Below, piece by piece: positions 1,101 to 25,331 of a DNA stretch of 64,000 bases; the stretch's first letter is position 1; each line of letters begins with the position of its first letter. A program made the position numbers and the translations under genes. Source of the DNA: Shigella phage SSG23; sequence record PQ351811; one strand, written 5' to 3'. The notes beneath the pieces were generated by a model. It was not told where the DNA came from. It searched no databases and saw nothing but the letters and a program-made list of their open reading frames with translations.

Positions 1101-1113
1101 TTTTAAAAAGTTG

Positions 1114-1142: not shown

Positions 1143-1175
1143 GCACACATACCGAAACGAAATAGGAGAATCAAA

Positions 1176-1343: not shown

Positions 1344-1357
1344 TTTTATAAAAAGTG

Positions 1358-1386
1358 TTGACAGGGGAGGATAACTCCCCTACAAT
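1358..1386 (+). promoter_or_regulatory. PeSL-like early promoter with spacer hairpin
   Basis: ttgaca 1358-1363, palindrome ggggaggataactcccc, tacaat 1381-1386. Confidence 0.65.
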
Positions 1387-1426
1387 ACAACCATCAAGAC
1401 GAGATACCACTTAGGAGAATCAAACA

Positions 1427-2962: not shown

Positions 2963-2963
2963 C

Positions 2964-3482
2964 ATGAACCGTTTGACGCCTAAACGCCGTTACTATACCA
3001 ATACTAAAAACTTTGTCATCTCTGTTTATGAGGCATGGTTAGAAGATGGCTATATCAACATGAACCCAGATTATCAGCGTCCTTTGGTATGGGACACCGA
3101 AAACAAACGTATGTTTATCGAGAACATGATTAATGACTTTCCGGTCGGCGCTATCGCAATGGCTAAGATTGATGATGGCTCTCGCTATGAAATCGAAATC
3201 GTGGACGGCAAACAGCGTTTAAACGCAATATTCTCATTCATGAAGGATGAGTTTAGCATTGCGGGTAATGATGATTCTATGCTGTATTACAGCGATTTTA
3301 CGCCAGCAGAAAAGCGACGTTTCCGCAATCTAGGACTACCAGCGATCATGATGGAAGAGAGCACACGAGAAGATCGATTAGAATATTTCTACAAAACAAA
3401 CTTTTTCGGTGTGCCTCAATCAGAAGATCATCGCCAGCATGTGATTGCCCTATTGCAAGATGAGCAATTAAAAAATAACTAA
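2964..3482 (+). CDS. DUF262 (ParB-like / GmrS N-terminal type) domain protein
   Basis: PDYQRPLVW and IVDGKQRL motifs; start moved to ATG 2964 with SD aggaga 7 nt upstream. Confidence 0.6.
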   Translation: MNRLTPKRRYYTNTKNFVISVYEAWLEDGYINMNPDYQRPLVWDTENKRMFIENMINDFPVGAIAMAKIDDGSRYEIEIVDGKQRLNAIFSFMKDEFSIAGNDDSMLYYSDFTPAEKRRFRNLGLPAIMMEESTREDRLEYFYKTNFFGVPQSEDHRQHVIALLQDEQLKNN

Positions 3483-3489
3483 AAAGTTG

Positions 3490-3519
3490 TTGACAGGGGA
3501 TCATCGATCCCCCTATAAT
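3490..3519 (+). promoter_or_regulatory. PeSL-like early promoter with spacer hairpin
   Basis: ttgaca 3490-3495, palindrome ggggatcatcgatcccc, tataat 3514-3519. Confidence 0.65.
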
Positions 3520-3551
3520 GCACACATACCGAAACGAAAGGAGAATCAAAC

Positions 3552-3731
3552 ATGAAACACTTAACCATCGAATCAGCAATCATCGCAATCGCTAAAGTTC
3601 AAGCGGCTTATAATTGCACTGACCTTGAAGCAATTTCAAAAATGCAAGCGGCAGCAGCAAAAGCGGGTGATGAAAAATCTTTAGATGTTCTCTGCGAAAT
3701 CAAATCAGAATTAATTTCAAAAATGTTCTAA
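3552..3731 (+). CDS. hypothetical small early protein (59 aa), not in ORF track
   Basis: ATG 3552 after leader aggagaatcaaac; stop taa 3729-3731. Confidence 0.55.
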   Translation: MKHLTIESAIIAIAKVQAAYNCTDLEAISKMQAAAAKAGDEKSLDVLCEIKSELISKMF

Positions 3732-3737
3732 AAGTTG

Positions 3738-3766
3738 TTGACACGCGATAGGGTGTATAGCATAAT
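3738..3766 (+). promoter_or_regulatory. PeSL-like early promoter
   Basis: ttgaca 3738-3743, cataat 3761-3766, leader tacacccataccgaaaca. Confidence 0.65.
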
Positions 3767-3806
3767 ACACCCATACCGAAACACGAACCACTAAGGAGTA
3801 TCAAAA

Positions 3807-4019
3807 ATGGCTAACATCGAAATCATCATCACCGACGTAACTTATGACCGCATCAACGAAATCGGTACTGCATTACTAGAAGATGGAACAACCCGCACCA
3901 TCAACTATGCAGAATACGTTGAAATGCGCGGTTGTATTAAACGAGTAGGAAAATACATCCTGATTGAAAAAGACTATTCAGGATACACATTAGAGCAATT
4001 ACTTGCTGGTGCATTATAA
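3807..4019 (+). CDS. hypothetical early protein (70 aa)
   Basis: ORF behind PeSL-like promoter; SD aaggag. Confidence 0.6.
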   Translation: MANIEIIITDVTYDRINEIGTALLEDGTTRTINYAEYVEMRGCIKRVGKYILIEKDYSGYTLEQLLAGAL

Positions 4020-4022
4020 TTT

Positions 4023-4046
4023 AAGGGGGCGTCAAGCCCCTTTTTC
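4023..4046 (+). terminator. rho-independent terminator
   Basis: aagggggc..gcccctt hairpin followed by ttttt. Confidence 0.6.
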
Positions 4047-4086
4047 ATAAATATAGGTTTATAGGTTATCAACTAGAGGATATAAA

Positions 4087-6138: not shown

Positions 6139-6155
6139 TTTTTAAGAAATAATGG

Positions 6156-6196
6156 TTGACTCAAACGGGGACTAGTTTTATACTAGCCCCGTTTTC
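6156..6196 (+). promoter_or_regulatory. terminator hairpin overlapping a sigma70-type promoter
   Basis: ttgact 6156-6161, tatact 6179-6184; hairpin cggggactagt/actagccccg followed by tttt. Confidence 0.55.
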
Positions 6197-6216
6197 TGTT
6201 ATATGGGAGGTTTAAA

Positions 6217-7041
6217 ATGTTCAAGAAATTACAGGATTTTCGCCTTTCAGAAGAATCACGCGAATCAATGATGGAACGTATGGATAATTACATCGAAACA
6301 TATGGCATTGAGGGGATTAATGGTTACATGATCACTGAAATGATCAGCGATCATATTAACTTTGATGATTACGTGAAAGTTATCCGTTTCCTTGAGCGCG
6401 AGACGCAAGATTATGGATTTGTCAAGAAGATCATTAATGTTATGTACGAAGTGCAATCCGAAGACTTTGGAGACAGTGTATTCAAGCATTATGGTCATAC
6501 CAATCTTACACCAGCAGAATATAATGCAATCTGTGATTATGTGTCTGAACAATACGAATGGGTAAATGGTGCTCTCTTAGGGGAAGAAGACATGACCGAC
6601 GAGATATCAGAAATTGTTGATTTGATGGATTGCGTCATGGATAAAACCGAAAAGTTAAACGGTACTCTTTATCGCGGTCAACATCTTGACATTCAGACAA
6701 TAGAGCGTATTATTGAAGATAAGGAATTTACATTTAAAAACTTTGTATCGACCAGCATGACACCGATCATCTTTGGAGGCTGGCTTTCAAACAGCACTAG
6801 CCTTTATTGTGAGAATCGATATGAATCAATGACCGGAAAGATGCAACATTCTTGTAATGTATCATGGGTAATTGACGTAAAAGATCATAAAGGTTTTGTT
6901 GTTGGGTCAATTGCATGGAATCCTTGCGAATGTGAAGTAATTTTACCGCGCGGGACTTGCATCAAGGTAAACGACGTAGTAGAATCTTTCGGCGATGAGA
7001 ATCGTAGACAATTTACAATTTTCGGTGAGGTGACTAAATGA
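6217..7041 (+). CDS. second ADP-ribosyltransferase, short Alt/Mod-like paralogue (274 aa)
   Basis: R-S-ExE motifs (LYRGQHLD, FVSTSMTP, ECEVILPRG); SD gggagg. Confidence 0.7.
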   Translation: MFKKLQDFRLSEESRESMMERMDNYIETYGIEGINGYMITEMISDHINFDDYVKVIRFLERETQDYGFVKKIINVMYEVQSEDFGDSVFKHYGHTNLTPAEYNAICDYVSEQYEWVNGALLGEEDMTDEISEIVDLMDCVMDKTEKLNGTLYRGQHLDIQTIERIIEDKEFTFKNFVSTSMTPIIFGGWLSNSTSLYCENRYESMTGKMQHSCNVSWVIDVKDHKGFVVGSIAWNPCECEVILPRGTCIKVNDVVESFGDENRRQFTIFGEVTK

Positions 7042-7523
7042 AAATGGTTAAACTGATTGGTCTTGCGGCTGCATTCATGCTTACTGGTTGTGCTAACATG
7101 GAAGCTATGATGAATGCTAAATCAGATCCGGTTTTCTTGCTTCGTGAATGTAAAGCAGCATATGCAAGCGATGATCAGATCGAATCATGCTTTATTTCTA
7201 AAATGGAACGTCGAGACGTGGATCGCGTTAAAGTTGGTTTAGCACCACAAACGCAGATGTTCAAAGATGCAATCAAAGAAGCGCGGGAAGAGAAAGCACG
7301 AGAAGAAAAGAAGCGTCAAGAAGAATTGCGCAAGCAACAAGAAGAGTCTATACAACTTGAGAAGATGAAAGCAAGGGATCGTTGTATTATCATGTCTGAC
7401 ATGCAGATAGAACAAGAAGCTAGAAAGGCAGCATTGAACGGTGATTATGACCGTTATGAAGAACTTAACAGCGCAGAGTTTCAAGCTAAGGCACTAAAAT
7501 ATTGCAATGATTTAGCAAAATAA
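7038..7523 (+). CDS. lipoprotein with charged coiled-coil region (161 aa)
   Basis: signal peptide with lipobox LTGC; KEAREEKAREEKKRQEELRKQQEE tract; ATGA overlap with upstream gene. Confidence 0.6.
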   Translation: MKMVKLIGLAAAFMLTGCANMEAMMNAKSDPVFLLRECKAAYASDDQIESCFISKMERRDVDRVKVGLAPQTQMFKDAIKEAREEKAREEKKRQEELRKQQEESIQLEKMKARDRCIIMSDMQIEQEARKAALNGDYDRYEELNSAEFQAKALKYCNDLAK

Positions 7524-7550
7524 AAAGGCGGGGATTATCCCCGCCTTTCG
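7524..7550. terminator. bidirectional terminator between convergent genes
   Basis: ggcggggattatccccgcc hairpin flanked by A-run and T-run. Confidence 0.65.
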
Positions 7551-7554
7551 CTTA

Positions 7555-8487
7555 TCAGAACCAGTTAGTGACAGTATTCACCACACGCCCACCAACGCCA
7601 TTTAGACGCGATAAAGCATTACCAGCAGCAGATAACCCACTATCAAGTAAATTGTTGCCGAAAGTGTTTGTTATTGCGTTTATTGCCTTATCCTCAATCC
7701 ATTCCCGCGCGGCTTGCTCTCCTACAGCACCAGTTTGCATAGAACGATATGCAAAAGTAACATCGAATGTTGTGATTTCGTTGTTATTTTCATAGGTTAA
7801 TTCCGGTGCACTCACACCAACAGGAACACAACCATTAAACATCATGATCGTGTGAGGAACTCCCATTCGGTTATGCAAGTTGACCTGAATATCTGCTTCA
7901 ACGTCAACAGGAAGCGCACGAAGCCCTGTAACGGGGTCTTCTACTGAGTTAACCCAATCCTGCATTGCTCTATAGTTTGATGCGCTAGAGTCCATTCTAA
8001 AGCTCAATACAAGCGGATCAAAATCACGTCCGGTAATTCTAATGTTTGGCGCATTGTGGTTACGGTCCATTTCATAACTCAATCTGTTTTCTGGAACCTT
8101 AACAGCATACACCAGAAGACCGCTTGTCTTATATGCCATATTGAACCAGTCAAGCGCATATGTACCAACATCAAATTGTCCCAGAAGAGATTGAACTACA
8201 CGAGATGACATTGCACCCAAAAGATACTTTTTGACACCGGATGAATCAACAGCACGCCTAACACCCTGTACAGCAAGATTAGTTAATGCGTCAGTATAAT
8301 CACCGCGAGTAATCCCGAAATAGTCATTTAATGCATTTGGTATAATATCATATACCGCACCGCCCATACTTTCTAGGATCGCTTGTGTCTTATTACTTGG
8401 AGTGGTGGCAAATGCCACGCTGAATAAGTTAGATCGCTGAAAGTCAAGGTTAGCGGCTTGTTCGTTAAAATCATTTAAATCAAACAT
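7555..8487 (-). CDS. 54: baseplate tail tube initiator gp54
   Basis: size and position in 29-48-54 order as in T4; ATG verified. Confidence 0.75.
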   Translation of the reverse strand: MFDLNDFNEQAANLDFQRSNLFSVAFATTPSNKTQAILESMGGAVYDIIPNALNDYFGITRGDYTDALTNLAVQGVRRAVDSSGVKKYLLGAMSSRVVQSLLGQFDVGTYALDWFNMAYKTSGLLVYAVKVPENRLSYEMDRNHNAPNIRITGRDFDPLVLSFRMDSSASNYRAMQDWVNSVEDPVTGLRALPVDVEADIQVNLHNRMGVPHTIMMFNGCVPVGVSAPELTYENNNEITTFDVTFAYRSMQTGAVGEQAAREWIEDKAINAITNTFGNNLLDSGLSAAGNALSRLNGVGGRVVNTVTNWF

Positions 8488-9545
8488 TATGCCGCACTCC
8501 CAAATATAGTACCACGGGAAAGTGTCAAGATCTCTCTAAATGATACTTCCAGAACAAAGGTACTAGGCAAGTTAGGAGAAATAGCAAGACCATTAAACTT
8601 ACCATCAGGCGACTTGTCCAGACGTACACTTGAGATCTGAGCGGGACCAAACGCATCGCTACGCCCTTCGAATGATGTGCGCTTACCGAAGTTAGAGATC
8701 ATCCATATTGTCGGGTTAGATACAGTAATTACGTTTGATAGAAAATCGGTGATCCCTTCAAACAAAGTATCATTTTTCTTTGCCTCGGCTGGAGTGGATT
8801 TGCTCAATAGAGTATTTTTATACCACGCATCAACTTCCGCTTTTAATTCCTTTGCGGTGCTAGAAATGCCACTAGAACCATAAGACAATTCTAAAAATGT
8901 TTCGTATATGATCAGAATATTGCGAAGGTCTTCAATACTACGTGGGGTTAGATGCCACACGTAGTTTTTAGTTCGTGCGTCAGCACCAGCATACATGCTT
9001 CGCGCAGTATTATAAATCTGTTCACCGTGATCGGCAAGGTATCCACCAGTAATACTTTCGATACCACCAAAAACGGCAGTAGATGCCATATTAGAAAGAG
9101 CACCGCCTAAAGTACCACCACCGCGAGAAATGACAGATTCACCAACATCATTAAACTTATGGCTAGCAGCGTCAACGTCAGATTGACTACGAGGAAGAAG
9201 AATATTAGCAATTGCCTCGCGGTCAAATGCAGCATTTCTCCCTCCCAAATTTAAATCAAAACCAGCGATATTAACGCTACCACCAAAACCGCTAGCAACA
9301 TTTTTCTTTTTCCTGAAATCACGCAGCGATCCAGTAGTACGAGATGTATAATCGTATGCAGTGAATAACAGACCATTATTATATAAGTCGTTGATATAGT
9401 AACCGCTAGCATCATTACCGCTAGCACGTTCAGCGGGGAATTGAGCGGTTAATGTTTTCCCTTTATTTTTTGAGGTAAAACCAGCGGAGGTTTTAACCCC
9501 CGCTTTAAAGCTATCAACGGCATCATTGATAACACTAATTTTCAT
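8487..9545 (-). CDS. 48: baseplate tail tube cap gp48
   Basis: T4 gene order and size. Confidence 0.75.
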   Translation of the reverse strand: MKISVINDAVDSFKAGVKTSAGFTSKNKGKTLTAQFPAERASGNDASGYYINDLYNNGLLFTAYDYTSRTTGSLRDFRKKKNVASGFGGSVNIAGFDLNLGGRNAAFDREAIANILLPRSQSDVDAASHKFNDVGESVISRGGGTLGGALSNMASTAVFGGIESITGGYLADHGEQIYNTARSMYAGADARTKNYVWHLTPRSIEDLRNILIIYETFLELSYGSSGISSTAKELKAEVDAWYKNTLLSKSTPAEAKKNDTLFEGITDFLSNVITVSNPTIWMISNFGKRTSFEGRSDAFGPAQISSVRLDKSPDGKFNGLAISPNLPSTFVLEVSFREILTLSRGTIFGSAA

Positions 9546-11278
9546 TAAAAGTTCCCCATATTAATTGTACCGGGGGCATCAATTCTAGTTGTTGGTGCAC
9601 CCTGTTTAATAGTTCTATTGTTTGTTACAATCTGTGTATTATTTACGTTTGAGGTCTGATTTGTCGTTTGTTGCTGGATTGCAGCTTGTTTCTGCATTTG
9701 TTCAGTACGTTCCGCTTGTTTTGCTGTTTCCGTTTCAGTTGCCGGAACTGGCTGTGTTTGCACAACACCCTTAGTTTTATCAGCATACATCTCATCAAAT
9801 TTTTCAATAAGACGCTCTAACTGAGAACGATCACTTTCAACTAATGTAGGATCTTGAACTTTCTCACGGTAAACATCAATATCCTTTTTCAACTCTCCCA
9901 TTTTTTCTTTGTCATAATCACCGCTCAAGTTCTCCATAACTTCATTAATATTATTGATCGCGCCCTCGCTTTTAATTCTAAGTTTACGACTAGCAGATCG
10001 TTGTTCAGCAGAAACAGACTCATACTCCCCGCGCTTTAATTCTTCTTGTCGTTTCTCTTCGTCAACATCCTTTTGATCTCTCCAACCCAGACTAACAAGA
10101 CCTTCGTTAACTTTATCCTTAATAGAATCACCGATAGCTTCGCCAATATCACGGGCTTTTCCGGTCCAACCAGTACGCTCTCCGTATTTGTCCTCTTCGT
10201 GTTCAGACTCGACCTTATCCATTAATTCGAGTTCTCTTTCGTTTGGCGTATAGCCTTGAGCGACAGCAGATTTTAAAGCACCATATTCTAACTTATCGGC
10301 ATAATCACCCATACCAGGGATCATGCGAAGAATTTTAGCAATACCAGTAGTGATAATTCGATCAAGTTGGATAAAGGTTTTATAGAATGCATCACCAATA
10401 CCCATAACAAGAGATTTAATTAATTCTCCATATTCGCCTTTAGACCAATAATCTCGAACTTGACGAATAGTTGTTAGAATATCACTAATTGGTCCAGCCC
10501 ATTCTCCGGCCTTATCCATAAATTCATCGAATTTTGTTTCGAATAAATCACTCCAATATCTGAAATGAATCATCAGGGTATCAATGGCAAAAACAATACC
10601 CATCAAAATAGCGCCCCATTTTGCGGCTTCTGCCATAGCGGTCAAGGTGATCTTAAATAACATCCCTAAGACCTTATTAGAGATACCTATGGTTTCTTTA
10701 AATCCTCCACGAACAACTTTAAGAAGATTTTCCATAGAATCCGCATTACGCTTATCTGCGGCGTTCTTTTTCTTCCGTTCCTCAACATCTGGTTTTTTCT
10801 TTGGAAGACCTTGATAGTTGTCATTATTAGGCTGTTCCGGTACAGTAGGCAAAACTGGCTGAGGTGATGGCATTGTTTGCGGTTGTTCCGGTTTTTTCAG
10901 TGCTTCTTCAATCGCACCAATACCGCTAGCCATTTTACTGACAACACCAAATCTACGTTCCATCATAACACCAAAACCACGTAATTTCTCATTCATCTGA
11001 GAAGAGAAATTATTGAGTTTTTGCAATTCTTCATAAGTTTTTTGGGTATTGCCAGCGGTAGATTGGGTATTCTCTGCCGTCAATTCATTGGCTGCGGTGT
11101 TATCCTCTACCGCACCAACAACTTCATTAGATTTTTGTTCTACTGTCTCCGCCACCAATTCGGTAGCGGCTTGCAAATTATCAATAGAATCAAGTTTATC
11201 TAATTTGTTAAGTTTATCAATCGGGTTTTCTTCCGCTTCCTTGCGCATCCCGCGAAATGATGTTAATGCGTCATTCAT
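9545..11278 (-). CDS. 29: baseplate hub / tail length determinant gp29
   Basis: T4 gene order and size (577 aa). Confidence 0.75.
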   Translation of the reverse strand: MNDALTSFRGMRKEAEENPIDKLNKLDKLDSIDNLQAATELVAETVEQKSNEVVGAVEDNTAANELTAENTQSTAGNTQKTYEELQKLNNFSSQMNEKLRGFGVMMERRFGVVSKMASGIGAIEEALKKPEQPQTMPSPQPVLPTVPEQPNNDNYQGLPKKKPDVEERKKKNAADKRNADSMENLLKVVRGGFKETIGISNKVLGMLFKITLTAMAEAAKWGAILMGIVFAIDTLMIHFRYWSDLFETKFDEFMDKAGEWAGPISDILTTIRQVRDYWSKGEYGELIKSLVMGIGDAFYKTFIQLDRIITTGIAKILRMIPGMGDYADKLEYGALKSAVAQGYTPNERELELMDKVESEHEEDKYGERTGWTGKARDIGEAIGDSIKDKVNEGLVSLGWRDQKDVDEEKRQEELKRGEYESVSAEQRSASRKLRIKSEGAINNINEVMENLSGDYDKEKMGELKKDIDVYREKVQDPTLVESDRSQLERLIEKFDEMYADKTKGVVQTQPVPATETETAKQAERTEQMQKQAAIQQQTTNQTSNVNNTQIVTNNRTIKQGAPTTRIDAPGTINMGNF

Positions 11279-11793
11279 GATAGGCGATCCAATATGTTAA
11301 TTCCACCATAGATAGTACCTTCCGGTGTATCCAGTGCAATAGTTTTTCTTAATCCTGTAGCCCAATCCATAATAAAAGCGGGGAAATCATGGAAGTCTAC
11401 ACTAGGATCGTGATAATGATGACTCAAGAAATCAGCGTCATCGATAATGGGGTCAGAAGTATACATCGGATTTTTAAATTTAAATGTTTTGCCATTTAAA
11501 TCAAATTCAGTTTCTGTACAAATATACACATCAGATAGTTTAAGACCGTCTTTTTCTTCCAGACATTTACCATTAAACGCACAAAGATTAAGCATAACCA
11601 ATTCAGACTCGGCAGCGTTTAACCCAGGGCAGATTGAATCAAGAAGAATCTTTAATGTTTCATCGCAGCTACGAACATCTTTTAATAATCGATGTTGCTT
11701 AATACCCATTTTTGGGATCTTGATATGTTTCCCGTTTATCTCTAAAGTTTTTACAGGAACAACAAATTTTAACATAGGTTTAGTTTCTGTCAT
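11275..11793 (-). CDS. 28: baseplate hub distal subunit gp28
   Basis: T4 gene order and size. Confidence 0.7.
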   Translation of the reverse strand: MTETKPMLKFVVPVKTLEINGKHIKIPKMGIKQHRLLKDVRSCDETLKILLDSICPGLNAAESELVMLNLCAFNGKCLEEKDGLKLSDVYICTETEFDLNGKTFKFKNPMYTSDPIIDDADFLSHHYHDPSVDFHDFPAFIMDWATGLRKTIALDTPEGTIYGGINILDRLS

Positions 11794-12902
11794 TATATCT
11801 TACCTTCAAATTTGACTTCCTGTAATTCTTCGCTGTTACCGATCATATACAGGTGAGTTAATGATTGTTCTCGGCTAATTTCATGCACCACTTCATCAAC
11901 AATAAAATCATTGCGTGCTTGTTGCTTCTCATCAAAGAATCGAATAACCATGCCAGGGCGCAACGAAAAATTACCATGACACACGGCGGTAGCATATGAA
12001 TCATACTGTTCTATTGTGGCAAGTTTAGAACCTTCCAAAAATGCATTCTTATAAGTCAACTCCCCATAAGCGCCACCATGTGCAAAATGAGCAATGTTAT
12101 CCCCGTTACCAACGACAATTTTATTATACTGCTTAGTAACAAAATCAATGGTCGTGTATGTCACATTGTTAAACGAGTTTTTAACTTTAGCATTGCTCTT
12201 AGTCTGCCATTCGAAATTAAAAACCATCAGATTAGGTGACATATCAATAAATTGCCCCATGAGTCTAGGCTCACATATTATAGCTGGTATTGGCTCATTT
12301 TTTAATATTGTATCGTGTCCGGCTATAGTTATACCATCAAAATCTTCCCAGCAATACACGAAAGACTCGGTTTCTACGCTTTGCCCGTATGCCCTCACAA
12401 AATCCATATAGTCATTTATGGTACTAACCCACGGACAACGAGGAATAACAACGTTATCACCTTTTATGGTTGGTTTCCATAAAGGAACTTCTTTATAGAT
12501 AGCGTCAATCATGCTGGTTACATTATTAACAGCGTTATTTGTCAATGCGCGAGAAAATTTAAGGTTTAGTGTTTCGTGATAGCTCTTTAACTGGAATGTT
12601 AAAATGTTGTCAGATTTTTGGTCAATCGTTACATTACTATGAGAGATCCCATAGATTCGGTTGAACACTTCATCTGTGTTGGCAGTAGATAACGAAATCT
12701 GAATGATCTCTCTCCCGTTTAATTTTGTATGCATCGCTTTATTATCATAGAATTGCAACAATCCTTCGTTCACCCCACGAATCGAATCACGCAGAGTCAT
12801 TGTAACAAAGGTAGCACCCAATTCTATAAAGCGATGATTTAGAAACGCCTCATAATCCTGATAAAGTTTTATTGAGACATTAGGAAACCCCGTTCTTTGC
12901 AT
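11793..12902 (-). CDS. 27: baseplate hub subunit gp27
   Basis: N-terminus MQRTGFPNVSIKLYQDY resembles remembered T4 gp27; gene order. Confidence 0.8.
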   Translation of the reverse strand: MQRTGFPNVSIKLYQDYEAFLNHRFIELGATFVTMTLRDSIRGVNEGLLQFYDNKAMHTKLNGREIIQISLSTANTDEVFNRIYGISHSNVTIDQKSDNILTFQLKSYHETLNLKFSRALTNNAVNNVTSMIDAIYKEVPLWKPTIKGDNVVIPRCPWVSTINDYMDFVRAYGQSVETESFVYCWEDFDGITIAGHDTILKNEPIPAIICEPRLMGQFIDMSPNLMVFNFEWQTKSNAKVKNSFNNVTYTTIDFVTKQYNKIVVGNGDNIAHFAHGGAYGELTYKNAFLEGSKLATIEQYDSYATAVCHGNFSLRPGMVIRFFDEKQQARNDFIVDEVVHEISREQSLTHLYMIGNSEELQEVKFEGKI

Positions 12903-13650
12903 TGTTTGCCTCTTTTACGTCTTTCTCGACCAGTGTCAATGCAATGTTTCTCTCGACGGGTAACATTTCCATAAGATCACTGATAGAATAATTTGATTTT
13001 GCCAACAGATGATTTATTCGATAAAATATGAATAACTCATCTGGATTCAACAACAATTTGAATAATGGAAGAAGACCTATGTATTTCAGGTCATGACTTT
13101 CACAACAAGATATCTTTTGTTCGATCTTGATCGTGTGCATTTGCTTAACAACTTCTTCAAATTCAGCAAACGAGATTGAATCGATAACCTGTTCTCTAAC
13201 TTCTTCCGGTAATTCGGTCCACAGATAATCATTAACACCATCAGAGACACGCTCTATCGCATCTAGAAACGTTTTTGCATAGTCGGTTGATGGTTTCACA
13301 TACCGGAAAGTTATTTTAAGACCTGCGGCCTCCAGAACGATTGGTTTTAGTGCTTCGACCTGTAAGTTGAGCAACATTTTTCTTTCTTTGTTGCAAGTCG
13401 GGCAAGTAAAGCAAAGCGGTATCTTTGTTTTGCCTATTGAGCTAGTAAAAACGTTCAGGAAAATATATTCACGAAATGCAGGGTCTACGTCTGGATATAT
13501 TTCTTCTAGTAGCTCATCCAGGATAGTTTGTTCTTCTTCTGGATTCATCTTAATTTCAGTTGACACCAGAAGGAAATCTCTGTAATCTTTAACAGTGAAA
13601 GGTTTAAATCGCTGTACACCTTCCGGTAGTTTTATTCGGATAATATTCAT
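12880..13650 (-). CDS. 51: baseplate hub assembly catalyst gp51
   Basis: gene order and size; late promoter upstream. Confidence 0.7.
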   Translation of the reverse strand: MNIIRIKLPEGVQRFKPFTVKDYRDFLLVSTEIKMNPEEEQTILDELLEEIYPDVDPAFREYIFLNVFTSSIGKTKIPLCFTCPTCNKERKMLLNLQVEALKPIVLEAAGLKITFRYVKPSTDYAKTFLDAIERVSDGVNDYLWTELPEEVREQVIDSISFAEFEEVVKQMHTIKIEQKISCCESHDLKYIGLLPLFKLLLNPDELFIFYRINHLLAKSNYSISDLMEMLPVERNIALTLVEKDVKEANNAKNGVS

Positions 13651-13670
13651 GGTATAATCCCCCTTTCGGG

Positions 13671-13678
13671 TATTTATA
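13671..13678 (-). promoter_or_regulatory. T4-type late promoter TATAAATA for gp51
   Basis: tatttata on + strand, 21 nt upstream of the start. Confidence 0.6.
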
Positions 13679-13720
13679 AAATACTAAATAATTCTATGTG
13701 TTTATAAAGGGTGTTTTATT

Positions 13721-14350
13721 ATGCAATACTTTTTCAAGATCCAAATAGGCGAAAAGTTGATACACGCCCGTGCTTTCACCTTCGGCGAATTTCAAAAACT
13801 GGTAGCAGCAAAAGAGACTGGCAAGCTGTCAGATGTTGTTATAGAGATTATATACGAATGTACGGGGATCAATGCATTAGAGCTAGAGAAATGCGAAGCA
13901 GAATATATTTTTCTTCTCTTATGGTGTCACAGCCTCAATAAGATGAAAATTGATGCTACTTGGGTGTGTGGTGTATGCAATAAAGAGAAAGTATATTCTC
14001 TTGATGTTTCACGCACACAGATACCAGAAGTCGAACCGTATATTCTAGACTTAGGACAAGTAAAAATCAAGTTTCGTCAACCTAAGTTTACAGAAGATGT
14101 TGATATTATGCAGATGGTAATTGCATGTATCGAATATATCGTGATCGGCGATCAACAATTCAATATAGACGACCTGAACGCACAGGACTTTGACCGCGTG
14201 CTGGATATGCTTACCACGGATAAAGTGGAAGAAGTGATCGACGAGCTAACAAGAAATCAAATCACGCTGGCAGTACCGATCAAATGCGAATGCGGGGAAT
14301 CTGGTGTATATTCATTATCAGGTCTATCCAGTTTCCTTAAAATTCTTTGA
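13721..14350 (+). CDS. 26: baseplate hub subunit gp26
   Basis: gene order and size (209 aa). Confidence 0.7.
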   Translation: MQYFFKIQIGEKLIHARAFTFGEFQKLVAAKETGKLSDVVIEIIYECTGINALELEKCEAEYIFLLLWCHSLNKMKIDATWVCGVCNKEKVYSLDVSRTQIPEVEPYILDLGQVKIKFRQPKFTEDVDIMQMVIACIEYIVIGDQQFNIDDLNAQDFDRVLDMLTTDKVEEVIDELTRNQITLAVPIKCECGESGVYSLSGLSSFLKIL

Positions 14351-14358
14351 GGTATAAC

Positions 14359-14745
14359 ATGGCAACTATTAATCAGATGTATACTGATTTGGATCTCAAT
14401 ATATCCAGATCGTGGAATAACGACGTTAAAAAGAACATAGGAATTAAAGCGGTTAAGGATTCTATTCTACTGATCGTGACTACTCGCAAGGGGTCTCGTC
14501 CATTTGATCCACTGTTTGGATGTGATCTCAATAAATCACTGTTTGAGAACATGAACCCACTGACGGTGGATACCTTATCAAAAAACATCAATGAGGCGAT
14601 CCGAAACTATGAACCACGGGTCCGAAACCTGACAGTAGAAGTAACTCCGCAGTACGACGATAATTCAATCATAGTATCAATCTACTTTTCAGTAATAGAT
14701 AACCCGGATGATCTTGAACAACTACGCATAAGACTTGCAAAGTGA
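14359..14745 (+). CDS. 25: baseplate wedge protein gp25
   Basis: MATINQMYTDLD..TTRKGSRPFDP..RNYEPR resembles remembered T4 gp25; start moved from TTG to ATG 14359. Confidence 0.9.
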   Translation: MATINQMYTDLDLNISRSWNNDVKKNIGIKAVKDSILLIVTTRKGSRPFDPLFGCDLNKSLFENMNPLTVDTLSKNINEAIRNYEPRVRNLTVEVTPQYDDNSIIVSIYFSVIDNPDDLEQLRIRLAK

Positions 14746-14792
14746 TTTTGTGTGTGATATGATATAGGTCTTAGTGTGAATAAGGGGATATT

Positions 14793-15200
14793 ATGGACCT
14801 AAACGATTTGAAAGAACAATTAGAAGCTGACATGAAGATCGATGCGACTAAGTTGCAATGGGAGGCGCTGAATAATCCGGTAGTATACTCAAAGTGGTTA
14901 AGGATTTACAGCGAGGCGAAGCGAGAGACGATTGCACTTGAGGCTAAAAAGAAAAAGGCTATGAAAAATCGTCTTGACTTTTACACTAACCGTAGTGATG
15001 ACTGGTGTCGCGCTGAGTATGAGAAATCAGAATTGAAAGTTGTCATGGCAGCAGACGACGAGATCTTACCACTTGATACGAAAATTGCATATTACCAGAT
15101 GGTAATGGATTTCGCTGGTCGCGCACTTGATATCGTTAAATCTCGTGGCTTTGCGATCAAGAATGCAATAGAATTGCGTATGCTGGAATCTGGTCGCTAA
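14793..15200 (+). CDS. uvsY: recombination mediator UvsY
   Basis: size and position next to gene 25 as in T4. Confidence 0.75.
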   Translation: MDLNDLKEQLEADMKIDATKLQWEALNNPVVYSKWLRIYSEAKRETIALEAKKKKAMKNRLDFYTNRSDDWCRAEYEKSELKVVMAADDEILPLDTKIAYYQMVMDFAGRALDIVKSRGFAIKNAIELRMLESGR

Positions 15201-15221
15201 ATACATGCAGGAGGAATTTTT

Positions 15222-15398
15222 ATGAAAATCTGTATTTGTTGTAAACAACCTGTCGAGGATGCGTTAGCCGTCCAGACAGAAAACGGCGTTGTTCACACTG
15301 GCTACTGCTTACAGCTAGTAACAGAACGTTCGATTAGTGAAGATGCGAACGGCGAAGAACAAGAACAACTCGTAGAGCAAACAATGCTGTTAATGTAA
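15222..15398 (+). CDS. hypothetical Cys-rich small protein (58 aa), not in ORF track
   Basis: ATG 15222 after SD ggagg; CICCKQP..GYC motif. Confidence 0.45.
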   Translation: MKICICCKQPVEDALAVQTENGVVHTGYCLQLVTERSISEDANGEEQEQLVEQTMLLM

Positions 15399-15431
15399 TT
15401 TGTTGATAACCGATTTTAATTGGTTTATTTT

Positions 15432-15456
15432 GCCCCATCATTGATGGGGCTTTTTT
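15432..15456 (+). terminator. rho-independent terminator
   Basis: gccccatca-t-tgatggggc hairpin followed by tttttt. Confidence 0.7.
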
Positions 15457-15461
15457 ATATC

Positions 15462-15698
15462 TTAAAAATCCTCTTCCGGCTCCTCTTCTGGCTCGTTGTC
15501 CGCTTCCAGTTGCTTACGGCGTCCGGCGATGGCATCACGAATCGAAATATCATCAGCAGGTTTCAATTCTGTTTCTTTCTTGCGCTTCTCATAATATGCC
15601 TCAAGTTCATTCAATCCCTCGATAGTATTACAAGAATAAATCTTACTCATGAAACCGTCAATAGCGGCCTCAACCAAAAAACGTTTAAAGCTAATCAT
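15462..15698 (-). CDS. uvsW.1: UvsW.1-like small protein
   Basis: small ORF directly downstream of uvsW as in T4. Confidence 0.6.
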   Translation of the reverse strand: MISFKRFLVEAAIDGFMSKIYSCNTIEGLNELEAYYEKRKKETELKPADDISIRDAIAGRRKQLEADNEPEEEPEEDF

Positions 15699-15741: not shown

Positions 15742-17244
15742 TTAAATCTCGATTGTTTTCGTGACATATTCGAATCGATCGGTGTTGTAAATTTTTATTC
15801 TTTCAAGGGCATGTTTAAGAGCATAATTAAGGTGGCTAAACTGTTTCTTAGCATTCTTGCTCTTTGTCTTAACCGCCAAATGATCTATAAGATCCCAAAC
15901 GGTAGCAATATCCTTAGAACCATGTTTACGCAATGCACGACCGATACTCTGACGAACGATAGTTGATTCCTTCACTGGATGACCGAAAATAACATGATGC
16001 AAGTTCTTGATGGAAACACCAGTAGAGAACACACCATAAGACGCAACACAGATTAAGCCAGTGTCACCTTCCGCCATTTTCTTAAATTCATCACGTTCTT
16101 CTGTCTTAACTCCACCGTCAATATAATAAACCTTGTCGTGTACCTTCTGTAACGCGTCATACATAAGTTTTCCGTGCTTAGTGTTACGGAACATCAGGAA
16201 TACGTTTTCGCCCTTCTTAGCGAGTTTTAGCGCCAAATTGCAAGCAAACTTATTACGTCGTGGGTTAGATGTAATATACTTGATCTCTTCCGCATATTCT
16301 CTCCCCTTAACCGCGCTACATTCCTCATCGGTATAACGAAGAAAAAGACAGTTAATTTTCAGTTTTGTCACTTGGCCTTCTTCCATCAGGCGGTCAATAC
16401 TCACGATCTTAGAAATATCACCGAAAAGCCCGACATACTGCATCATGTTAGCTTTCCCGTCACGAGGGGAACCAGTCATACCGATCTTAAATTGGCAATG
16501 ATCCATATCAGTAACGATGTTTAGCAGGTTTTTAGCAGTGGCCTTGTGACATTCATCAACAATTACCATCCCAAATTGCTGGAACCACTCACGAGGCTGT
16601 TTACATGCTGATTGCCACGTACTAACAACGATCAGGCGATCACCTACGTGTTTACTAGTACCGCTCATGATAGTATGAATTGCTTCATAAGGAAACTGGC
16701 GATAATCAACAAAGTCATCACGCATTTGCAGCACTAGCGACGTGGTAGGAACGATGATCAGCACTTTCCCTTCGTAGTTCTCTAAGTACCAGCGAGACAA
16801 CATACAAGCAATTGCAGATTTACCAGCGGACGTAGGCAAAACTAACATACGGCGTTTATGATGAATACCTTCAAATACAGCCTTTGATTGATACCAATGC
16901 GGGGTGATCCTGTTAGCACCGGAATATAATTCTAAGTCGTTACACCATTTTGTGATCTCTTCTTCTGTAACCTGTTCTTTCTCGAATAAGCGAGGGTCTA
17001 CCCAAACAGAATAACCCATATTTTTAGCGAAGATGCCAACGGTTTTAGTTAGGCCGATTGGCAACTTTCCATTGTAATCTAAAAGACGAATACGCCCATC
17101 CCATCCGCCATACTTAAATCTTTTTTGAAACCGTGCTCCCTCGACTTCAAAACTAAAATAATCTCGCATTTCTAATAAAATTGAATCGCTACATTCAATT
17201 TGAACGTGGGAGTAGTTCAGAAAGTGAATTTTAATATCTTGCAT
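15742..17244 (-). CDS. uvsW: DNA/RNA helicase UvsW
   Basis: MQDIKIHF..SHVQIEC N-terminus, Walker A LPTSAGKS and DECH box resemble remembered T4 UvsW; ORF-track start 17259 is a GTG extension. Confidence 0.9.
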   Translation of the reverse strand: MQDIKIHFLNYSHVQIECSDSILLEMRDYFSFEVEGARFQKRFKYGGWDGRIRLLDYNGKLPIGLTKTVGIFAKNMGYSVWVDPRLFEKEQVTEEEITKWCNDLELYSGANRITPHWYQSKAVFEGIHHKRRMLVLPTSAGKSAIACMLSRWYLENYEGKVLIIVPTTSLVLQMRDDFVDYRQFPYEAIHTIMSGTSKHVGDRLIVVSTWQSACKQPREWFQQFGMVIVDECHKATAKNLLNIVTDMDHCQFKIGMTGSPRDGKANMMQYVGLFGDISKIVSIDRLMEEGQVTKLKINCLFLRYTDEECSAVKGREYAEEIKYITSNPRRNKFACNLALKLAKKGENVFLMFRNTKHGKLMYDALQKVHDKVYYIDGGVKTEERDEFKKMAEGDTGLICVASYGVFSTGVSIKNLHHVIFGHPVKESTIVRQSIGRALRKHGSKDIATVWDLIDHLAVKTKSKNAKKQFSHLNYALKHALERIKIYNTDRFEYVTKTIEI

Positions 17245-22329: not shown

Positions 22330-22604
22330 TGGACAAGAAAACTGCGTTAATGGTTTACATGCTACGCGAAGACCACGGTCTTAATTTTGTTGATATTGCT
22401 AAGAAGATTGGCGGGATCAGCGGACAAGATGCGGCTAAGGCATGGTTGATGGTAAAAGACGCACGCGAGGCTTACGCCAACCGTGAAAAGGTTGTTTATC
22501 GTAAACACCACATCAACAAAAAATTTAAAAATAAAGTTCAAAAACGGGTTGACAAGCCAAATAACACTGTTATAATGGACGCATTCAAACGGGCAATGTC
22601 CTGA
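22329..22604 (+). CDS. small basic protein, possible HTH DNA-binding (91 aa)
   Basis: ATG 22329 overlaps upstream stop (TGATG); LNFVDIAKKIGGISGQDAAKAW helix-turn-helix-like segment; basic C-terminus. Confidence 0.45.
   Translation: MDKKTALMVYMLREDHGLNFVDIAKKIGGISGQDAAKAWLMVKDAREAYANREKVVYRKHHINKKFKNKVQKRVDKPNNTVIMDAFKRAMS
22549..22576 (+). promoter_or_regulatory. sigma70-type promoter inside the 3' end of the preceding gene
   Basis: ttgaca 22549-22554, 16-nt spacer, tataat 22571-22576. Confidence 0.55.
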
Positions 22605-22650
22605 TTTGTAATTAATATTCTGAATAACTAATCAATAGAGGTGACTAATT

Positions 22651-23088
22651 ATGAAATTCCGTAAAAACCACGTAGCAATGAAAAAAGCAATGTTCGAAGC
22701 GTTCAAAGCAGTTGATCATGGCGGTGTTACTCTGATTGAGCAAATTAATGTTGATGTTTGGCAATCTCCGGCGATCACTTGCTCACGTCTGGCGACGGCT
22801 GGTCTTCTGAACGTTCATAGCTCTACCGCATACGACGAAGCATTGCAAGTTATTAAGGCTTTCGCTGGCGACGTTACCAGTAAGTGGGTCTATGAGAATA
22901 AAGGTGAAATTGCGGTTGCTCATGTAGGCAACAATATCCAGATGGAAATCAAGATTAAGGAAGGGTCTAAACGCAATCAGATGCTTGTTCGCTTCCAGCC
23001 ATACAAAACTAACGTAGTGCCGGATGATCTGATCATCTCTAAGAGCAATGTTACCATTCGCCGAAATCAGATCGTTATCAACAAATAA
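22651..23088 (+). CDS. hypothetical protein (145 aa)
   Basis: SD agaggtga; terminator downstream. Confidence 0.6.
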   Translation: MKFRKNHVAMKKAMFEAFKAVDHGGVTLIEQINVDVWQSPAITCSRLATAGLLNVHSSTAYDEALQVIKAFAGDVTSKWVYENKGEIAVAHVGNNIQMEIKIKEGSKRNQMLVRFQPYKTNVVPDDLIISKSNVTIRRNQIVINK

Positions 23089-23096
23089 TTAACATT

Positions 23097-23121
23097 AGCC
23101 GTCCTTCGGGGCGGCTTTTTT
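23097..23121 (+). terminator. rho-independent terminator
   Basis: agccgtcc-ttcg-gggcggct hairpin followed by tttttt. Confidence 0.7.
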
Positions 23122-23175
23122 GTATCTATTATTGACATAATTTTAGTTTACATTTGGACAATATTAATACTGTTT

Positions 23176-23248
23176 GATTAAATTATGATCAAAACGAAGA
23201 AAGATCTTTAGAACATAGAAAATGTATCTTTGATTAATTATTAATCAC
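23176..23248 (+). repeat. copy A of a conserved AT-rich intergenic motif
   Basis: gattaaattatgatcaaaacgaagaaagatctttagaa... shared with copies at 23325 and 60751. Confidence 0.6.
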
Positions 23249-23324
23249 CACATAATGTAACACAAATGTTATACTCCGTAGGAGTTCGCGAAGCGATATC
23301 CTTTTGTGTAGTTTTTACATATAT

Positions 23325-23395
23325 GATTAAATTATGATCAAAACGAAGACTTATCTTATAGAATAATAAAAATTTGTTTCGAACATTTATTAATC
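23325..23395 (+). repeat. copy B of the same intergenic motif
   Basis: gattaaattatgatcaaaacgaaga identical to copy A over 25 nt, then agaataataaaaatttgtttcg shared with copy C. Confidence 0.6.
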
Positions 23396-23501
23396 AATTA
23401 CCGGAAGTGTTTTATTGCTCGCTGTGCTCGCTTCCGCTACGCGGATACTTGTATTTGTTATTAACTTGTAGTATGATATTGCTTTCTATGGAGGAAATAT
23501 T

Positions 23502-24089
23502 ATGTTTGACCAGTTACAAGATCTATTTGGAGTAAAACCACTTCGTAGATGTGCTTTAATAGGCTCTAGAAAAGCGCCTAGCGACATTTTGATAATGGCT
23601 AGTACCATTGGGAGGGTATTGTCAGAAAATCGCGTTGTAGCGCATTCTGGAGGGGCTTACGGTATGGACAATGCTTTCATGAAGTATTACGATCCAGATT
23701 ATAGAAAAATTTTCATTCCAAATTGGAAGTTTTACGACCATAAGCATAACGGTCATGATGTGATCGCATGGCAAACCTTAGAACAAAAAAATCTGGCGAT
23801 GGATGAATTAGAACACGTTTATGATAATCCTCGTTCTATACCGTTATACATGCAAAATCTGTTTTCTAGAAATGTTGCTCAAGTCTTAGGTGAGACACTT
23901 GATGATCCTGTAGATTGTGTGTTATTTTGGGCGAAAGAAGTTAATGGGATTGTTTCGGGCGGAACTCGAATTGCTGTTTACGTTGCTCGTAGACATGGGA
24001 TACCATGTTTTAACTTATATCATCAAGAAAATAGATCCGCCGTCGAAAAAATCTTGGGCGGATCTGACTTGTCTTGGTTAGATATTTAG
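23502..24089 (+). CDS. DprA/Smf-like (SLOG-fold) protein (195 aa)
   Basis: LIGSRKAP..VVAHSGGAYGMDNAFM and FSRNVAQVLG..IVSGGTRIA match DprA Rossmann-core motifs from memory; SD ggagg. Confidence 0.6.
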   Translation: MFDQLQDLFGVKPLRRCALIGSRKAPSDILIMASTIGRVLSENRVVAHSGGAYGMDNAFMKYYDPDYRKIFIPNWKFYDHKHNGHDVIAWQTLEQKNLAMDELEHVYDNPRSIPLYMQNLFSRNVAQVLGETLDDPVDCVLFWAKEVNGIVSGGTRIAVYVARRHGIPCFNLYHQENRSAVEKILGGSDLSWLDI

Positions 24090-25331
24090 TTAAGCGTTGT
24101 CGATCTCAAGTGGTGGCAGTTCGATACCTAAAATGTAGGACATTTCTGAACGTCCAGCAAGTTTAGCCCACTCGTCACCCTTGACGATCTGGTGTTCTTC
24201 CTGATCAACTTTTGCTGTGTATGGGTTGACAGAAAGTGAATAACGATTCATAATAGCTACATGGTGTTGGAAGCTGTTAGGGTCAATTACGCTCTTATAC
24301 GCTCCAGCGCCATCGGCTTCTGTGTATGGGGAGTAGAACAGAGAACCTACACTCTCCATATCACCGATCATGTGCTTACAACCAACGAGCATATAATCGA
24401 AAGGTGTTGTCGTGTCTGCGTACACTTCAAGACCGCAACGTAGACGACCTTCGCTTAGAGCGTTGTCGGTTTCTTCCATCCATCCGGTAGATTGCAGGAG
24501 GCCAACCACGCGAGAAGACGCCAAAACGTATGTACCAGCAAAGGAGGAAGTACGCAACATTTGATTGCTCATTTCGCAAGCATAGCGGTAAAGTTCGCGA
24601 GCTTGTTTTGGTGCATCCTGAACGCTAACTAGAGAAAGTACGCCATCAGGGGTGATCCCTTTAATTTTATAGCGAGTTGATACAGTGATCAACTTCTGTA
24701 TAATATCTTTGTTGATCTCTTCGGAAGCGACAGTAGCCAGAAGATCAATTACAGAGTTTTCAGAGTTGATTTGGCTTGCTTCAAGATCCTGCATTAATTC
24801 AGTGGTGAACGAGGTTTTCAGTTTACGAGAACCTACATTAACCTGCCACTTGTCAAACTGCATTGACGTTGATGAGATCTCTGTGTTTTTATCTTCAAAG
24901 TATTCTACAGGTGCACAGTCGCTATAGAAACGAATTTTGTTTGTCATCACGCCTTTGAAAATTGCAGCTTCCGGCGTAGCGGCATCTTCACCGACTGTAC
25001 CAGCGGTCACAACTTCGTATACAACATCGCCAGATTTGAACAATGCGCCTTCGTCATAGGATTTTTCTTTTGAAAACTCTTCGATCTCTGTGCGATCGCC
25101 AGCCGCGCCACCATAGGTTGCAGCGGACCGGAAAGTCATCTGACCATCACGGTTAAGATAGCGTAGGCCGTACAATGCAGACACTGGTTGATCCGTTGGC
25201 TGGATTGCTACCAGATCAGAGAAAATCAGGTTGTTTACCGCGCGAGTTAATGATAATAGTTGCGGTCGCGCTGTCTGGTTAGCTACTGAGGAAGTGGATT
25301 CCCGCAACAGTTCAGTAAAAATATGAGTCAT
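24090..25331 (-). CDS. 24: capsid vertex protein gp24
   Basis: MTHIFTELLRESTSS..RPQLLSLTRA..SDLVAIQPTDQPV resembles remembered T4 gp24; start moved to ATG 25331. Confidence 0.9.
   Translation of the reverse strand: MTHIFTELLRESTSSVANQTARPQLLSLTRAVNNLIFSDLVAIQPTDQPVSALYGLRYLNRDGQMTFRSAATYGGAAGDRTEIEEFSKEKSYDEGALFKSGDVVYEVVTAGTVGEDAATPEAAIFKGVMTNKIRFYSDCAPVEYFEDKNTEISSTSMQFDKWQVNVGSRKLKTSFTTELMQDLEASQINSENSVIDLLATVASEEINKDIIQKLITVSTRYKIKGITPDGVLSLVSVQDAPKQARELYRYACEMSNQMLRTSSFAGTYVLASSRVVGLLQSTGWMEETDNALSEGRLRCGLEVYADTTTPFDYMLVGCKHMIGDMESVGSLFYSPYTEADGAGAYKSVIDPNSFQHHVAIMNRYSLSVNPYTAKVDQEEHQIVKGDEWAKLAGRSEMSYILGIELPPLEIDNA

Follow-up and report, generated by a model that had tools for sequence, protein, structure and literature searches.

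The DNA analyzed here, a stretch of 64,000 nucleotides of Shigella phage SSG23 (record PQ351811; the window), harbors a small family of repeated AT-rich modules, two of which occupy the non-coding gap upstream of a DprA-like gene. The gene order at this locus is hoc, 24.3, ORF165, the gap, the DprA-like gene (ORF164) and, on the opposite strand, gene 24. Positions 22600-24200 are 100% identical to Shigella phage SFHK24 (PQ351812.1) and 96-98% identical to 57 other Krischvirus records; the source genus is Krischvirus, the RB49-like T4-type phages, and window position 1 corresponds to SFHK24 genome position 140035. An initial annotation of the window had reported a 413-bp gap of unusual length, which we confirm. 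The gap runs from 23089 to 23501, between the ORF165 stop codon (ending at 23088) and the ATG of the DprA-like gene (23502), and is the longest in the SFHK24 annotation tables if a doubtful internal open reading frame (ORF) of 53 amino acids (aa) is ignored. The non-coding region is bounded on its left by the intrinsic terminator of ORF165, which is also annotated in several Krischvirus records and does not belong to the repeat.

The two direct copies noticed in the gap, here termed A and B, are real. The 25-mer at which they begin occurs exactly twice (23176-23200 and 23325-23349), with none expected in 100 shuffles, and the identical stretch is actually a 26-mer starting at 23175 and 23324. 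Over 73 nt (23175-23247 and 23324-23396), A and B are 73% identical. A third copy, C, between the antisense 84-aa gene and gene 3, had correctly been called a hybrid of A and B, since it has 24 nt in common with A and 23 nt with B; its extent had been set too short, as it includes two GC-rich hairpins. In full, the family members span 23175-23301 (A), 23324-23445 (B), and 60735-60833 (C). While the repeat as such had been recognized, the initial annotation had overlooked a -10-like hexamer at fixed spacing, the compensated GC hairpins as part of the unit, a copy in a prophage, and a fourth phage copy, D, which lies outside the window between the tail-fibre genes 35 and 36 (SFHK24 110663-110761, minus strand) and matches C at 92% identity over 99 nt. 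Searching with nhmmer and a profile built from all variants, we found four copies per genome and no more (E 3e-13 to 7e-18); the best remaining match had an E-value of 0.74. These four copies are held by three loci, 24/DprA-like, 2/3, and 35/36, all beside core genes, and every copy is oriented toward its downstream gene (the DprA-like gene, gene 3, or gene 36). Strong terminators of the upstream genes precede A and D, and C sits between divergent genes, so that no other transcription is expected to reach the copies.

Each module consists of an AT-rich core of ~73 bp and, 0-40 nt past the core, one or two GC-rich hairpins in which a 5-bp stem closes a 3-nt loop (Table 1). The core comprises a 17-bp dyad (TGATTAAATTATGATCA or TGGTTAAAACATAACCA), the invariant box CAAAACGAAGA, the motifs ATCTT and TAGAAT, an AT-rich stretch, and a second 17-bp dyad that ends in TTAATCA or TAGTCA; both dyads have the form TGATTAA-N3-..ATCA. 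In module B, the arms make up a 31-nt imperfect palindrome. The hairpins are of the types GTGCC-TNC-GGCAC, GTCGC-RAA-GCGAY, and TCCGC-TAC-GCGGA. The two palindromic cores singled out initially fared differently: AAAGATCTTT is not conserved, as both B and the prophage copy lack it, whereas TGATTAATTATTAATCA reads TGGTTAATTATTAATCA in 8 of 11 Krischvirus genomes but recurs in near-perfect form in distant relatives. Within the insert specific to copy A, the extended -10-like sequence TGTTATACT at 23267-23275 is a candidate promoter element.

Table 1. Coordinates of the repeat modules and adjoining features in the window
Feature	Position	Strand	Description and basis
Module A core	23175-23247	+	nhmmer E 2e-16; 4/73 columns variable (11 genomes)
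Module A dyad 1, TGATTAAATTATGATCA	23175-23191	+	sequence
Module A box, CAAAACGAAGA	23190-23200	+	sequence
Module A TAGAAC	23209-23214	+	sequence
Module A dyad 2, TGATTAATTATTAATCA	23231-23247	+	sequence
A-specific insert, core to hairpin	23248-23280	+	sequence and alignment with D
Module A hairpin, GGAGTTCGCGAAGCGATATCC	23281-23305	+	RNA fold; inner TCGC-GAA-GCGA 23286-23296, then TTTT
Module B core	23324-23396	+	nhmmer E 3e-13; 3/73 columns variable
Module B dyad 1	23324-23340	+	sequence
Module B box	23339-23349	+	sequence
Module B TAGAAT	23359-23364	+	sequence
Module B dyad 2, CGAACATTTATTAATCA	23380-23396	+	sequence
Module B hairpins	23402-23445	+	RNA fold; long stem 23402-23409/23429-23436; alternative TCCGC-TAC-GCGGA 23433-23445, then T-rich tract
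Module C core	60735-60807	+	nhmmer E 8e-17
Module C dyad 1, TGGTTAAAACATAACCA	60736-60752	+	sequence
Module C box	60751-60761	+	sequence
Module C TAGAAT	60770-60775	+	sequence
Module C dyad 2, CGGTTAAAAAGTAGTCA	60791-60807	+	sequence
Module C tandem hairpins	60808-60833	+	GTGCC-TCC-GGCAC 60808-60820; GTCGC-AAA-GCGAC 60821-60833, the second terminator-like
Late-promoter-like AATAAATA	60841-60848	+	7/8 match to TATAAATA; upstream of gene 3 ATG (60870), adjoins C, outside the module
Intrinsic terminator of ORF165	23097-23116	+	8-bp stem with 6 GC pairs, then TTTTTT

The motif is conserved in related genomes, as the initial annotation had required for its reading to stand: all 58 Krischvirus records carry the modules, and further members were found in uncultured relatives and in a prophage. 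In an alignment of 11 Krischvirus genomes (22651-24089), 5.5% of the columns are variable in core A, 4.1% in core B, and 0% (0/13) in the hairpin of A, compared with 18.6% in the spacer 23089-23174, 34.6% in the A-B linker, and 7-12% in the neighbouring genes. The modules are thus 4-8 times less variable than the spacers between them, which indicates that they are constrained by purifying selection. Low variability extends past the cores, with 3 of 37 variable columns over 23248-23284 and 3 of 49 over the segment of module B from 23397 to 23445; a 14-mer of the A hairpin, TCGCGAAGCGATAT, is identical in copy D. Inside the core, a hand count in the alignment of 13 variants gave ~25 invariant columns out of 42 in the upstream half versus ~11 out of 34 in the putatively transcribed half. 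In close variants, TAGAAT shows two substitutions, to TATAAT and TAAAAT, both of them at the third and least critical position. The feature is real, non-random, and selected, and its architecture is kept across deep divergence.

This divergence became apparent from uncultured relatives, which we retrieved by homologues of gp3 and of the DprA-like protein. Where the DprA-like protein is 49-70% identical, synteny is kept and the same gap always contains 2-3 tandem modules. From lineage to lineage the module interior differs completely, the SFHK24 sequence giving way, for example, to CAAACGTCATGTGATCTCTATAAT...ATGACGAATGATTAATTATTAATCA; dyad 1, a TGATCA-like hexamer followed by A(A)ACG, the GC hairpins, and dyad 2 (often a near-perfect TGATTAATNATTAATCA) are kept. 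TA(T/G)AAT follows the TGATCA-like hexamer by 16-18 nt in 13 of 15 modules, one of which reads TTGAAC-17-TATAAT, and a perfect TATAAT is found in most diverged lineages. These comparisons restored the case for a promoter and lend limited support to the dyads as dimeric binding sites. Copies of the same genome are alike: in L160/L162 (type-2 lineage), the interiors of C and D are nearly identical, yet unlike those of SFHK24, which points to gene conversion or to co-evolution with a common partner.

We also analyzed whether the conserved segments fold as RNA, a check that the initial annotation had proposed and that gave opposite outcomes for the two parts of the module. In the AT-rich core, RNAalifold on the 13 variants yielded weak structure with a covariation term of +0.25, and hairpin 1 was broken in several variants. 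The outer 6-bp inverted repeat is 90% paired, with one-sided changes and no excess over shuffles. A structured RNA in the core was rejected, there being no covariation, and so was the idea that dyad 1 is strictly a hairpin or a symmetric site, since it is broken in PHB13 and in prophage variants. The lack of RNA covariation, together with the stronger conservation of the upstream half, suggests that the core is recognized as duplex DNA. In contrast, pairing is complete (100%) in the GC hairpins of the gene 2/3 and 35/36 loci, where 4 pairs carry compensatory changes among 7 sequences or lineages, a small sample; 0 or 1 of 500 shuffles reached these values. One example is the double change from GTCGC/GCGAC to TCTGC/GCAGA. 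The G-T pairs in the stems can pair in the plus sense only. When Rfam covariance models were run on the gap, the best matches fell far below the gathering score and lay on the upstream terminator, not on the modules; the prophage copy gave none.

The GC-rich dyads reported earlier downstream of the cores exist, and three of the four final hairpins (those of B, C, and D) score as terminator-like, against 0.2-0.4 such sites expected by chance per region. Their stems are only 5 bp long, and the T tracts are interrupted; A has a hairpin followed by TTTT, and the prophage copy lacks a U tract. Perfect hairpins with 5-bp stems and triloops are rare, numbering 13 in the genome, about the chance level, and 4 of these 13 are inside modules.

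Among the phage collection, the element is restricted to Krischvirus. A pattern scan of viral contigs revealed ~30 prophage-like contigs with TTGATTAAATCATCATCAAAACGAAGAAGTATCTTTAGAAT...AATCAGG followed by GCAACCGAAGGTTGC and ATCCCGAAGGGAT, and this form is present in 53 of 5,426 complete E. coli genomes, with one copy per prophage. The carrier is an unrelated 39-kb prophage that is integrated in hicB by a large serine recombinase (NZ_CP062211.1, ~2210300-2249160; loci L083, L125, and L151). Its copy of the element borders 1.4 kb of unannotated non-coding DNA (L083:5885-7263), in which about ten TTTCAGGGGCAAAAAT iterons occur alongside repeats of TCTAGAATCATCTAGTAACCAGTT and numerous GC triloop hairpins; the region looks like an origin or control region and had no plasmid match. 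The prophage also encodes UvsW (with UvsW_N domain; L151:8806-10296), which is 79% identical at the aa and 79.5% at the nt level to that of Krischvirus (SFHK24 155776-157278, window ~15742-17244). Tail-fibre segments (41-70%), an LprI-like gene (60%), and a small protein are also common to both, indicating that a lytic T4-type phage and a temperate phage have exchanged DNA repeatedly. Searches in one genome per species, in plasmids, and in phages outside Krischvirus gave no true match, and a metagenome scan returned the two lineages and chance matches.

Which function might underlie this conservation? The modules fit neither T4 early nor MotA-box middle nor late consensus promoters, as had been stated initially and as motif and weight-matrix scans bear out. 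A MotA-type middle promoter was rejected because the modules lack a TGCTT box (the MotA box is (a/t)(a/t)(a/t)TGCTTtA centred at -30), and neither motA nor a middle consensus has been reported for RB49 (PMC1524935). A T4-type late promoter was rejected likewise, no TATAAATA being found inside any module; canonical or 7/8 boxes adjoin D and C outside the repeat. A wider promoter class defined by box plus -10 was dismissed, as only the four modules fit it genome-wide.

We tentatively propose that each copy could be an operator-flanked sigma-70-type promoter giving rise to a short, hairpin-ended non-coding RNA, a reading that we regard as quite possible but not yet as probable. The cassette would be self-contained and cis-regulatory, acting mainly at the DNA level. 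Its promoter would be of moderate intrinsic strength, with a -35-like TGATCA or TAACCA, an invariant spacer starting with AAACG, and the -10 hexamer TAGAAT (TATAAT in relatives). The two 17-bp dyads would frame this promoter, one over the -35 region and one at ~+10 to +25, and could act as operators for a dimeric protein, either a host nucleoid protein or some phage protein; their core fits a degenerate Fis pattern. Transcription would have the same sense as the downstream gene and would cross ~35-45 nt of AT-rich sequence before reaching the one or two GC-rich 5-bp/triloop hairpins, which would end or attenuate the transcript, leaving a non-coding RNA of ~55-85 nt. Such a transcript might serve as a primer or in an R-loop, as a small RNA (sRNA), or as an attenuated leader. 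A leader for downstream genes is possible at C, since gene 1, encoding an early enzyme, follows gene 3; weak promoter-like sites inside gene 3 weigh on this idea.

Several observations speak against the proposed promoter. Sigma-70 weight-matrix scores of the modules are just 3.3-9.2 bits, equalled by 308 to 15,652 genome sites depending on the copy, and 89 sites reach at least 12 bits; a strong unaided sigma-70 promoter is ruled out by this ranking, and SFHK24 taken alone makes no convincing case for a promoter. Copy A reads TAGAAC and so lacks the critical final T, TAGAAT is deleted in one prophage variant, and L160/L162 as well as one module of the relative L171 have no hexamer at the spacing seen elsewhere. 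The palindromic core moreover yields promoter-like matches on the opposite strand (TTGATC-17-TATAAT-like), which makes the direction proposed here a tentative one. The spacing of the dyads varies (~56 bp in SFHK24 versus ~59 and 64 bp in L171), some variants depart from strict symmetry in dyad 1, and the prophage hairpins are without a U tract.

The modules are reminiscent of the promoter-early stem-loop (PeSL) cassettes of RB49 and phi1 (Arbiol et al. 2010, PMC2839356; Comeau et al. 2014, PMC4122927). PeSLs have a near-perfect TTGACA-N17-TATAAT and G(n)-loop-C(n) stems that act as terminators, and are numerous in hyperplastic regions beside ORFans. Both are repeated intergenic cassettes of the same phage group, combine AT-rich promoter-type sequence with a stem-loop, and possibly undergo recombination or gene conversion between copies. 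In contrast to PeSLs, the modules have a poor -35 (TGATCA, TAACCA, or TAGCCA), TAGAAT or TAGAAC, the CAAAACGAAGA box, and two 17-bp dyads. Their stems are of mixed sequence (GTGCC/GGCAC, GTCGC/GCGAC, TCCGC/GCGGA) and lie 0-40 nt downstream of the core, whereas the PeSL stem is within or upstream of the promoter. Finally, there are only four module copies, at fixed core-genome loci. On all four counts (promoter consensus, type of stem, number of copies, and location), identity with PeSLs was therefore rejected. The module family is undescribed in the literature searched, although it resembles known intergenic promoter/stem-loop cassettes of T4-type phages.

Other known systems match in part. 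In operator-flanked promoters of the Fis type, such as the autoregulated fis promoter of E. coli, two 15-bp G...C sites with AT-rich sequence likewise occur, one covering the -35 region and the other immediately past the start; the pattern is degenerate, and another dimeric protein is possible. The 5-bp GC stems with 3-nt loops resemble the extra-stable d(GCGAAGC)-type mini-hairpins and the hairpin promoters of phage N4, the exact GCGAAGC being present in A, D, and relatives. RB49-like phages are not known to have an N4-type virion RNA polymerase. T4 oriF (in uvsY) and oriG (in gene 34) are also units of ~100 bp with a promoter of ordinary -10 followed by AT-rich DNA, few per genome and in or near late regions, and in both phages one non-coding unit lies in the tail-fibre cluster. 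The T4 units differ in that they use a MotA box (RB49-type phages are without MotA), have neither dyads nor GC hairpins, and have no sequence in common with the modules.

By analogy with these T4 units, the cassette might be a transcription-primed replication origin module of RB49-like phages, which we consider rather unlikely. A host-polymerase promoter framed by the dyads would fire a short transcript into the easily melted AT-rich stretch to yield an R-loop or primer. On the displaced strand, the GC mini-hairpins, which are very stable, would form and delimit the unwound region, and the same module would have been exchanged with a temperate E. coli phage that also gained the R-loop helicase UvsW and in which it lies next to an iteron region. 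T4 origins are few per genome, in or beside late-gene regions and strand-switch points (PMC3016281). Three loci per genome, similarly placed, are of the same order of magnitude, and D, a promoter-like unit without coding role in the late tail-fibre cluster, parallels T4 oriG in gene 34. Testing for a promoter with an AT-rich unwinding element, we found the -10-like hexamer conserved with a weak intrinsic score. Genome-wide, the duplex is least stable in the A/B gap for windows of 60 and 75 bp, and C ranks first or second at 40 and 75 bp; D, however, is not unusually unstable (top 0.5-3.6% of windows). The DNA unwinding element has been reported to need no specific sequence, and a conserved promoter side with freely changing downstream sequence fits this report. 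UvsW is the helicase that removes origin R-loops in T4, and the prophage that has uvsW carries its copy bordering the 1.4-kb iteron region; this co-occurrence may be plain mosaicism, given that the tail fibre, the LprI-like gene, and the small protein are also common to prophage and Krischvirus. Iterons with 11-bp periodicity at the gene 2/3 junction of a relative (L164, see below) would also suit an origin. On the other hand, sequence similarity to oriF or oriG is lacking, and the putative transcript is U/A-rich, not purine-rich, and non-purine-rich transcripts disfavour stable RNA-DNA hybrids.

The initial annotation had proposed a dimeric DNA-binding site, which is plausible from the pattern of the dyads. 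All 8 dyads in the four SFHK24 modules match, by pattern alone, the Fis-type 15-bp core G-N2-Y-A-N5-T-R-N2-C with AT-rich centre, and the four modules are the sole pairs of such sites in the genome spaced 54-57 bp, with 0.6 pairs expected. The pattern is degenerate (the genome has 125 matches), and each prophage site departs from it at one key position. IHF, DnaA, and CRP sites were rejected, as only scattered one-mismatch matches were found that are not conserved between copies. We therefore considered whether the dyads could be purely architectural or operator DNA without a promoter of their own, at which Fis or a phage protein would bend the DNA or control nearby promoters, namely the late promoters next to C and D and a leftward promoter in the prophage. 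This is unlikely. It would agree with the complete match of the dyads at their unique spacing, with primary-sequence conservation without RNA covariation, with the weak intrinsic promoter score, with the late-promoter-like boxes 0-18 nt past the hairpins at C and D, and with a leftward promoter-like site 50-150 bp downstream of the prophage copy. On the other hand, the interval to the downstream promoter varies, and in phage phiS a 600-bp endonuclease gene lies within it; the A/B locus is without a late promoter; the degenerate Fis-like pattern is off by one in the prophage; and the compensated hairpins and the conserved -10-like hexamer would be left unexplained.

A search for DNA-binding proteins common to phage and prophage yielded no recognizable repressor or activator; what they have in common is UvsW, the tail fibre, the LprI-like protein, and an 83-aa protein. 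The latter (phrog_14908; SFHK24 CDS0248, 141461-141712, window ~1427-1678) is confined to Krischvirus among 50,697 phage records and has a 43% identical homologue in the prophage (L151:14744-15130), in which a Rho_N-like motif gave a weak, sub-threshold match (E 0.045). Its distribution equals that of the modules, making it a candidate partner, as a lead only.

That the cassettes are sRNA genes in their own right, each encoding a trans-acting sRNA of 55-85 nt with an AU-rich 5' region, terminal hairpins, and dyad 2 (UGAUUAAUUAUUAAUCA) within the RNA, appears doubtful at best. Promoter-like and terminator-like signals 50-80 nt apart on the same strand, the conservation of the dyad 2 segment across distant lineages, and hairpin covariation with plus-sense G-U pairs would all fit, and tandem paralogues are common for sRNAs. 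The untranscribed side is nevertheless more conserved than the transcribed side, the interior is fully replaced between lineages, the 5-bp stems are short and several lack a proper U tract, and neither an Rfam match nor a target was identified. Maintenance of the repeats for homologous exchange alone, as recombination or mobility cassettes of the kind proposed for PeSLs, is very improbable: intra-genome copies more alike than orthologues (C/D interiors in L160/L162) indicate gene conversion, the element moved between lytic phage and prophage, phiS has gained a homing-endonuclease gene right beside C, and repeat-mediated shuffling has a precedent in RB49/phi1 (PMC2839356), but the positions are fixed at three syntenic core loci in all genomes and in distant relatives without flanking variable ORFans, exchange between the mutually inverted C and D would invert 78 kb, and selection on specific blocks together with compensated hairpins points to a sequence-specific function. 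A MITE-like element (miniature inverted-repeat transposable element) was excluded, as terminal 6-bp inverted repeats are present without target-site duplication.

Compared with these alternatives, the operator-flanked promoter with a short hairpin-ended transcript is the reading that we tentatively prefer. RB49-type phages have no MotA, no recognized middle promoters, and no mapped replication origins. Being neither early, middle, nor late promoters nor PeSLs, the modules are a concrete candidate for a missing control element, whether an origin, a regulated non-coding unit, or an operator. Phages of the RB49 group, such as phi1, have been isolated for or are in testing for phage therapy. In addition, the prophage copy, together with uvsW, tail-fibre, and other segments, documents that regulatory DNA and not genes only are exchanged between lytic T4-type phages and prophages.

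A coding role of the modules was discarded, as there is no conserved ORF and frames are interrupted. GenBank lists small ORFs of SFHK24 over the modules, namely CDS0276 over B (window 23374-23535), CDS0033 over C (~60732-60827, minus strand), and CDS0191 over D (SFHK24 110698-110787). Inconsistent strands and non-conserved frames suggest that the three are probably spurious.

Upstream of the modules in the gap, TTGACA occurs at 23133-23138 in SFHK24 and reads TAAACA in 9 of the 11 aligned genomes, with no -10 partner at 16-18 nt. As a conserved early promoter it was ruled out, being strain-specific and without a -10. With regard to late promoters, a second AATAAATA box (7/8 match) lies at 60707-60714 on the minus strand, so that the pair diverges around C between the 84-aa gene and gene 3. 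Between copy D and gene 36 lies a perfect TATAAATA, and nine exact TATAAATA are present in the window, all on the minus strand.

At the gene 2/gene 3 junction, the site of module C here, an uncultured relative with 73% identical gp3 (Logan SRR29026054, 152.8-kb contig; L164:2560-2720) has at least seven 11-bp-periodic iterons (A/G)TGAATCGCTAG, followed by the GC triloop hairpins GCCGC-GCA-GCGGC and GTCCC-TAC-GGGAC. This arrangement recalls the iterons reported at T4 oriE. In phage phiS (PP449093.1; L126:760-1352, at ~window 60838), a cassette of ~600 bp lies between the second hairpin of C and the promoter region of gene 3. It contains an 'endonuclease' gene, of HNH/AP2 type by appearance, with its own TTGACA promoter, and leaves module C intact. 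Finally, the match between the window and the circularised SFHK24 record breaks at 28787, where the record wraps, and is offset by ~161 nt thereafter (window 60681 corresponds to record position 32022, not 31861), indicating that the source assembly is slightly unlike PQ351812.1 at the record ends.

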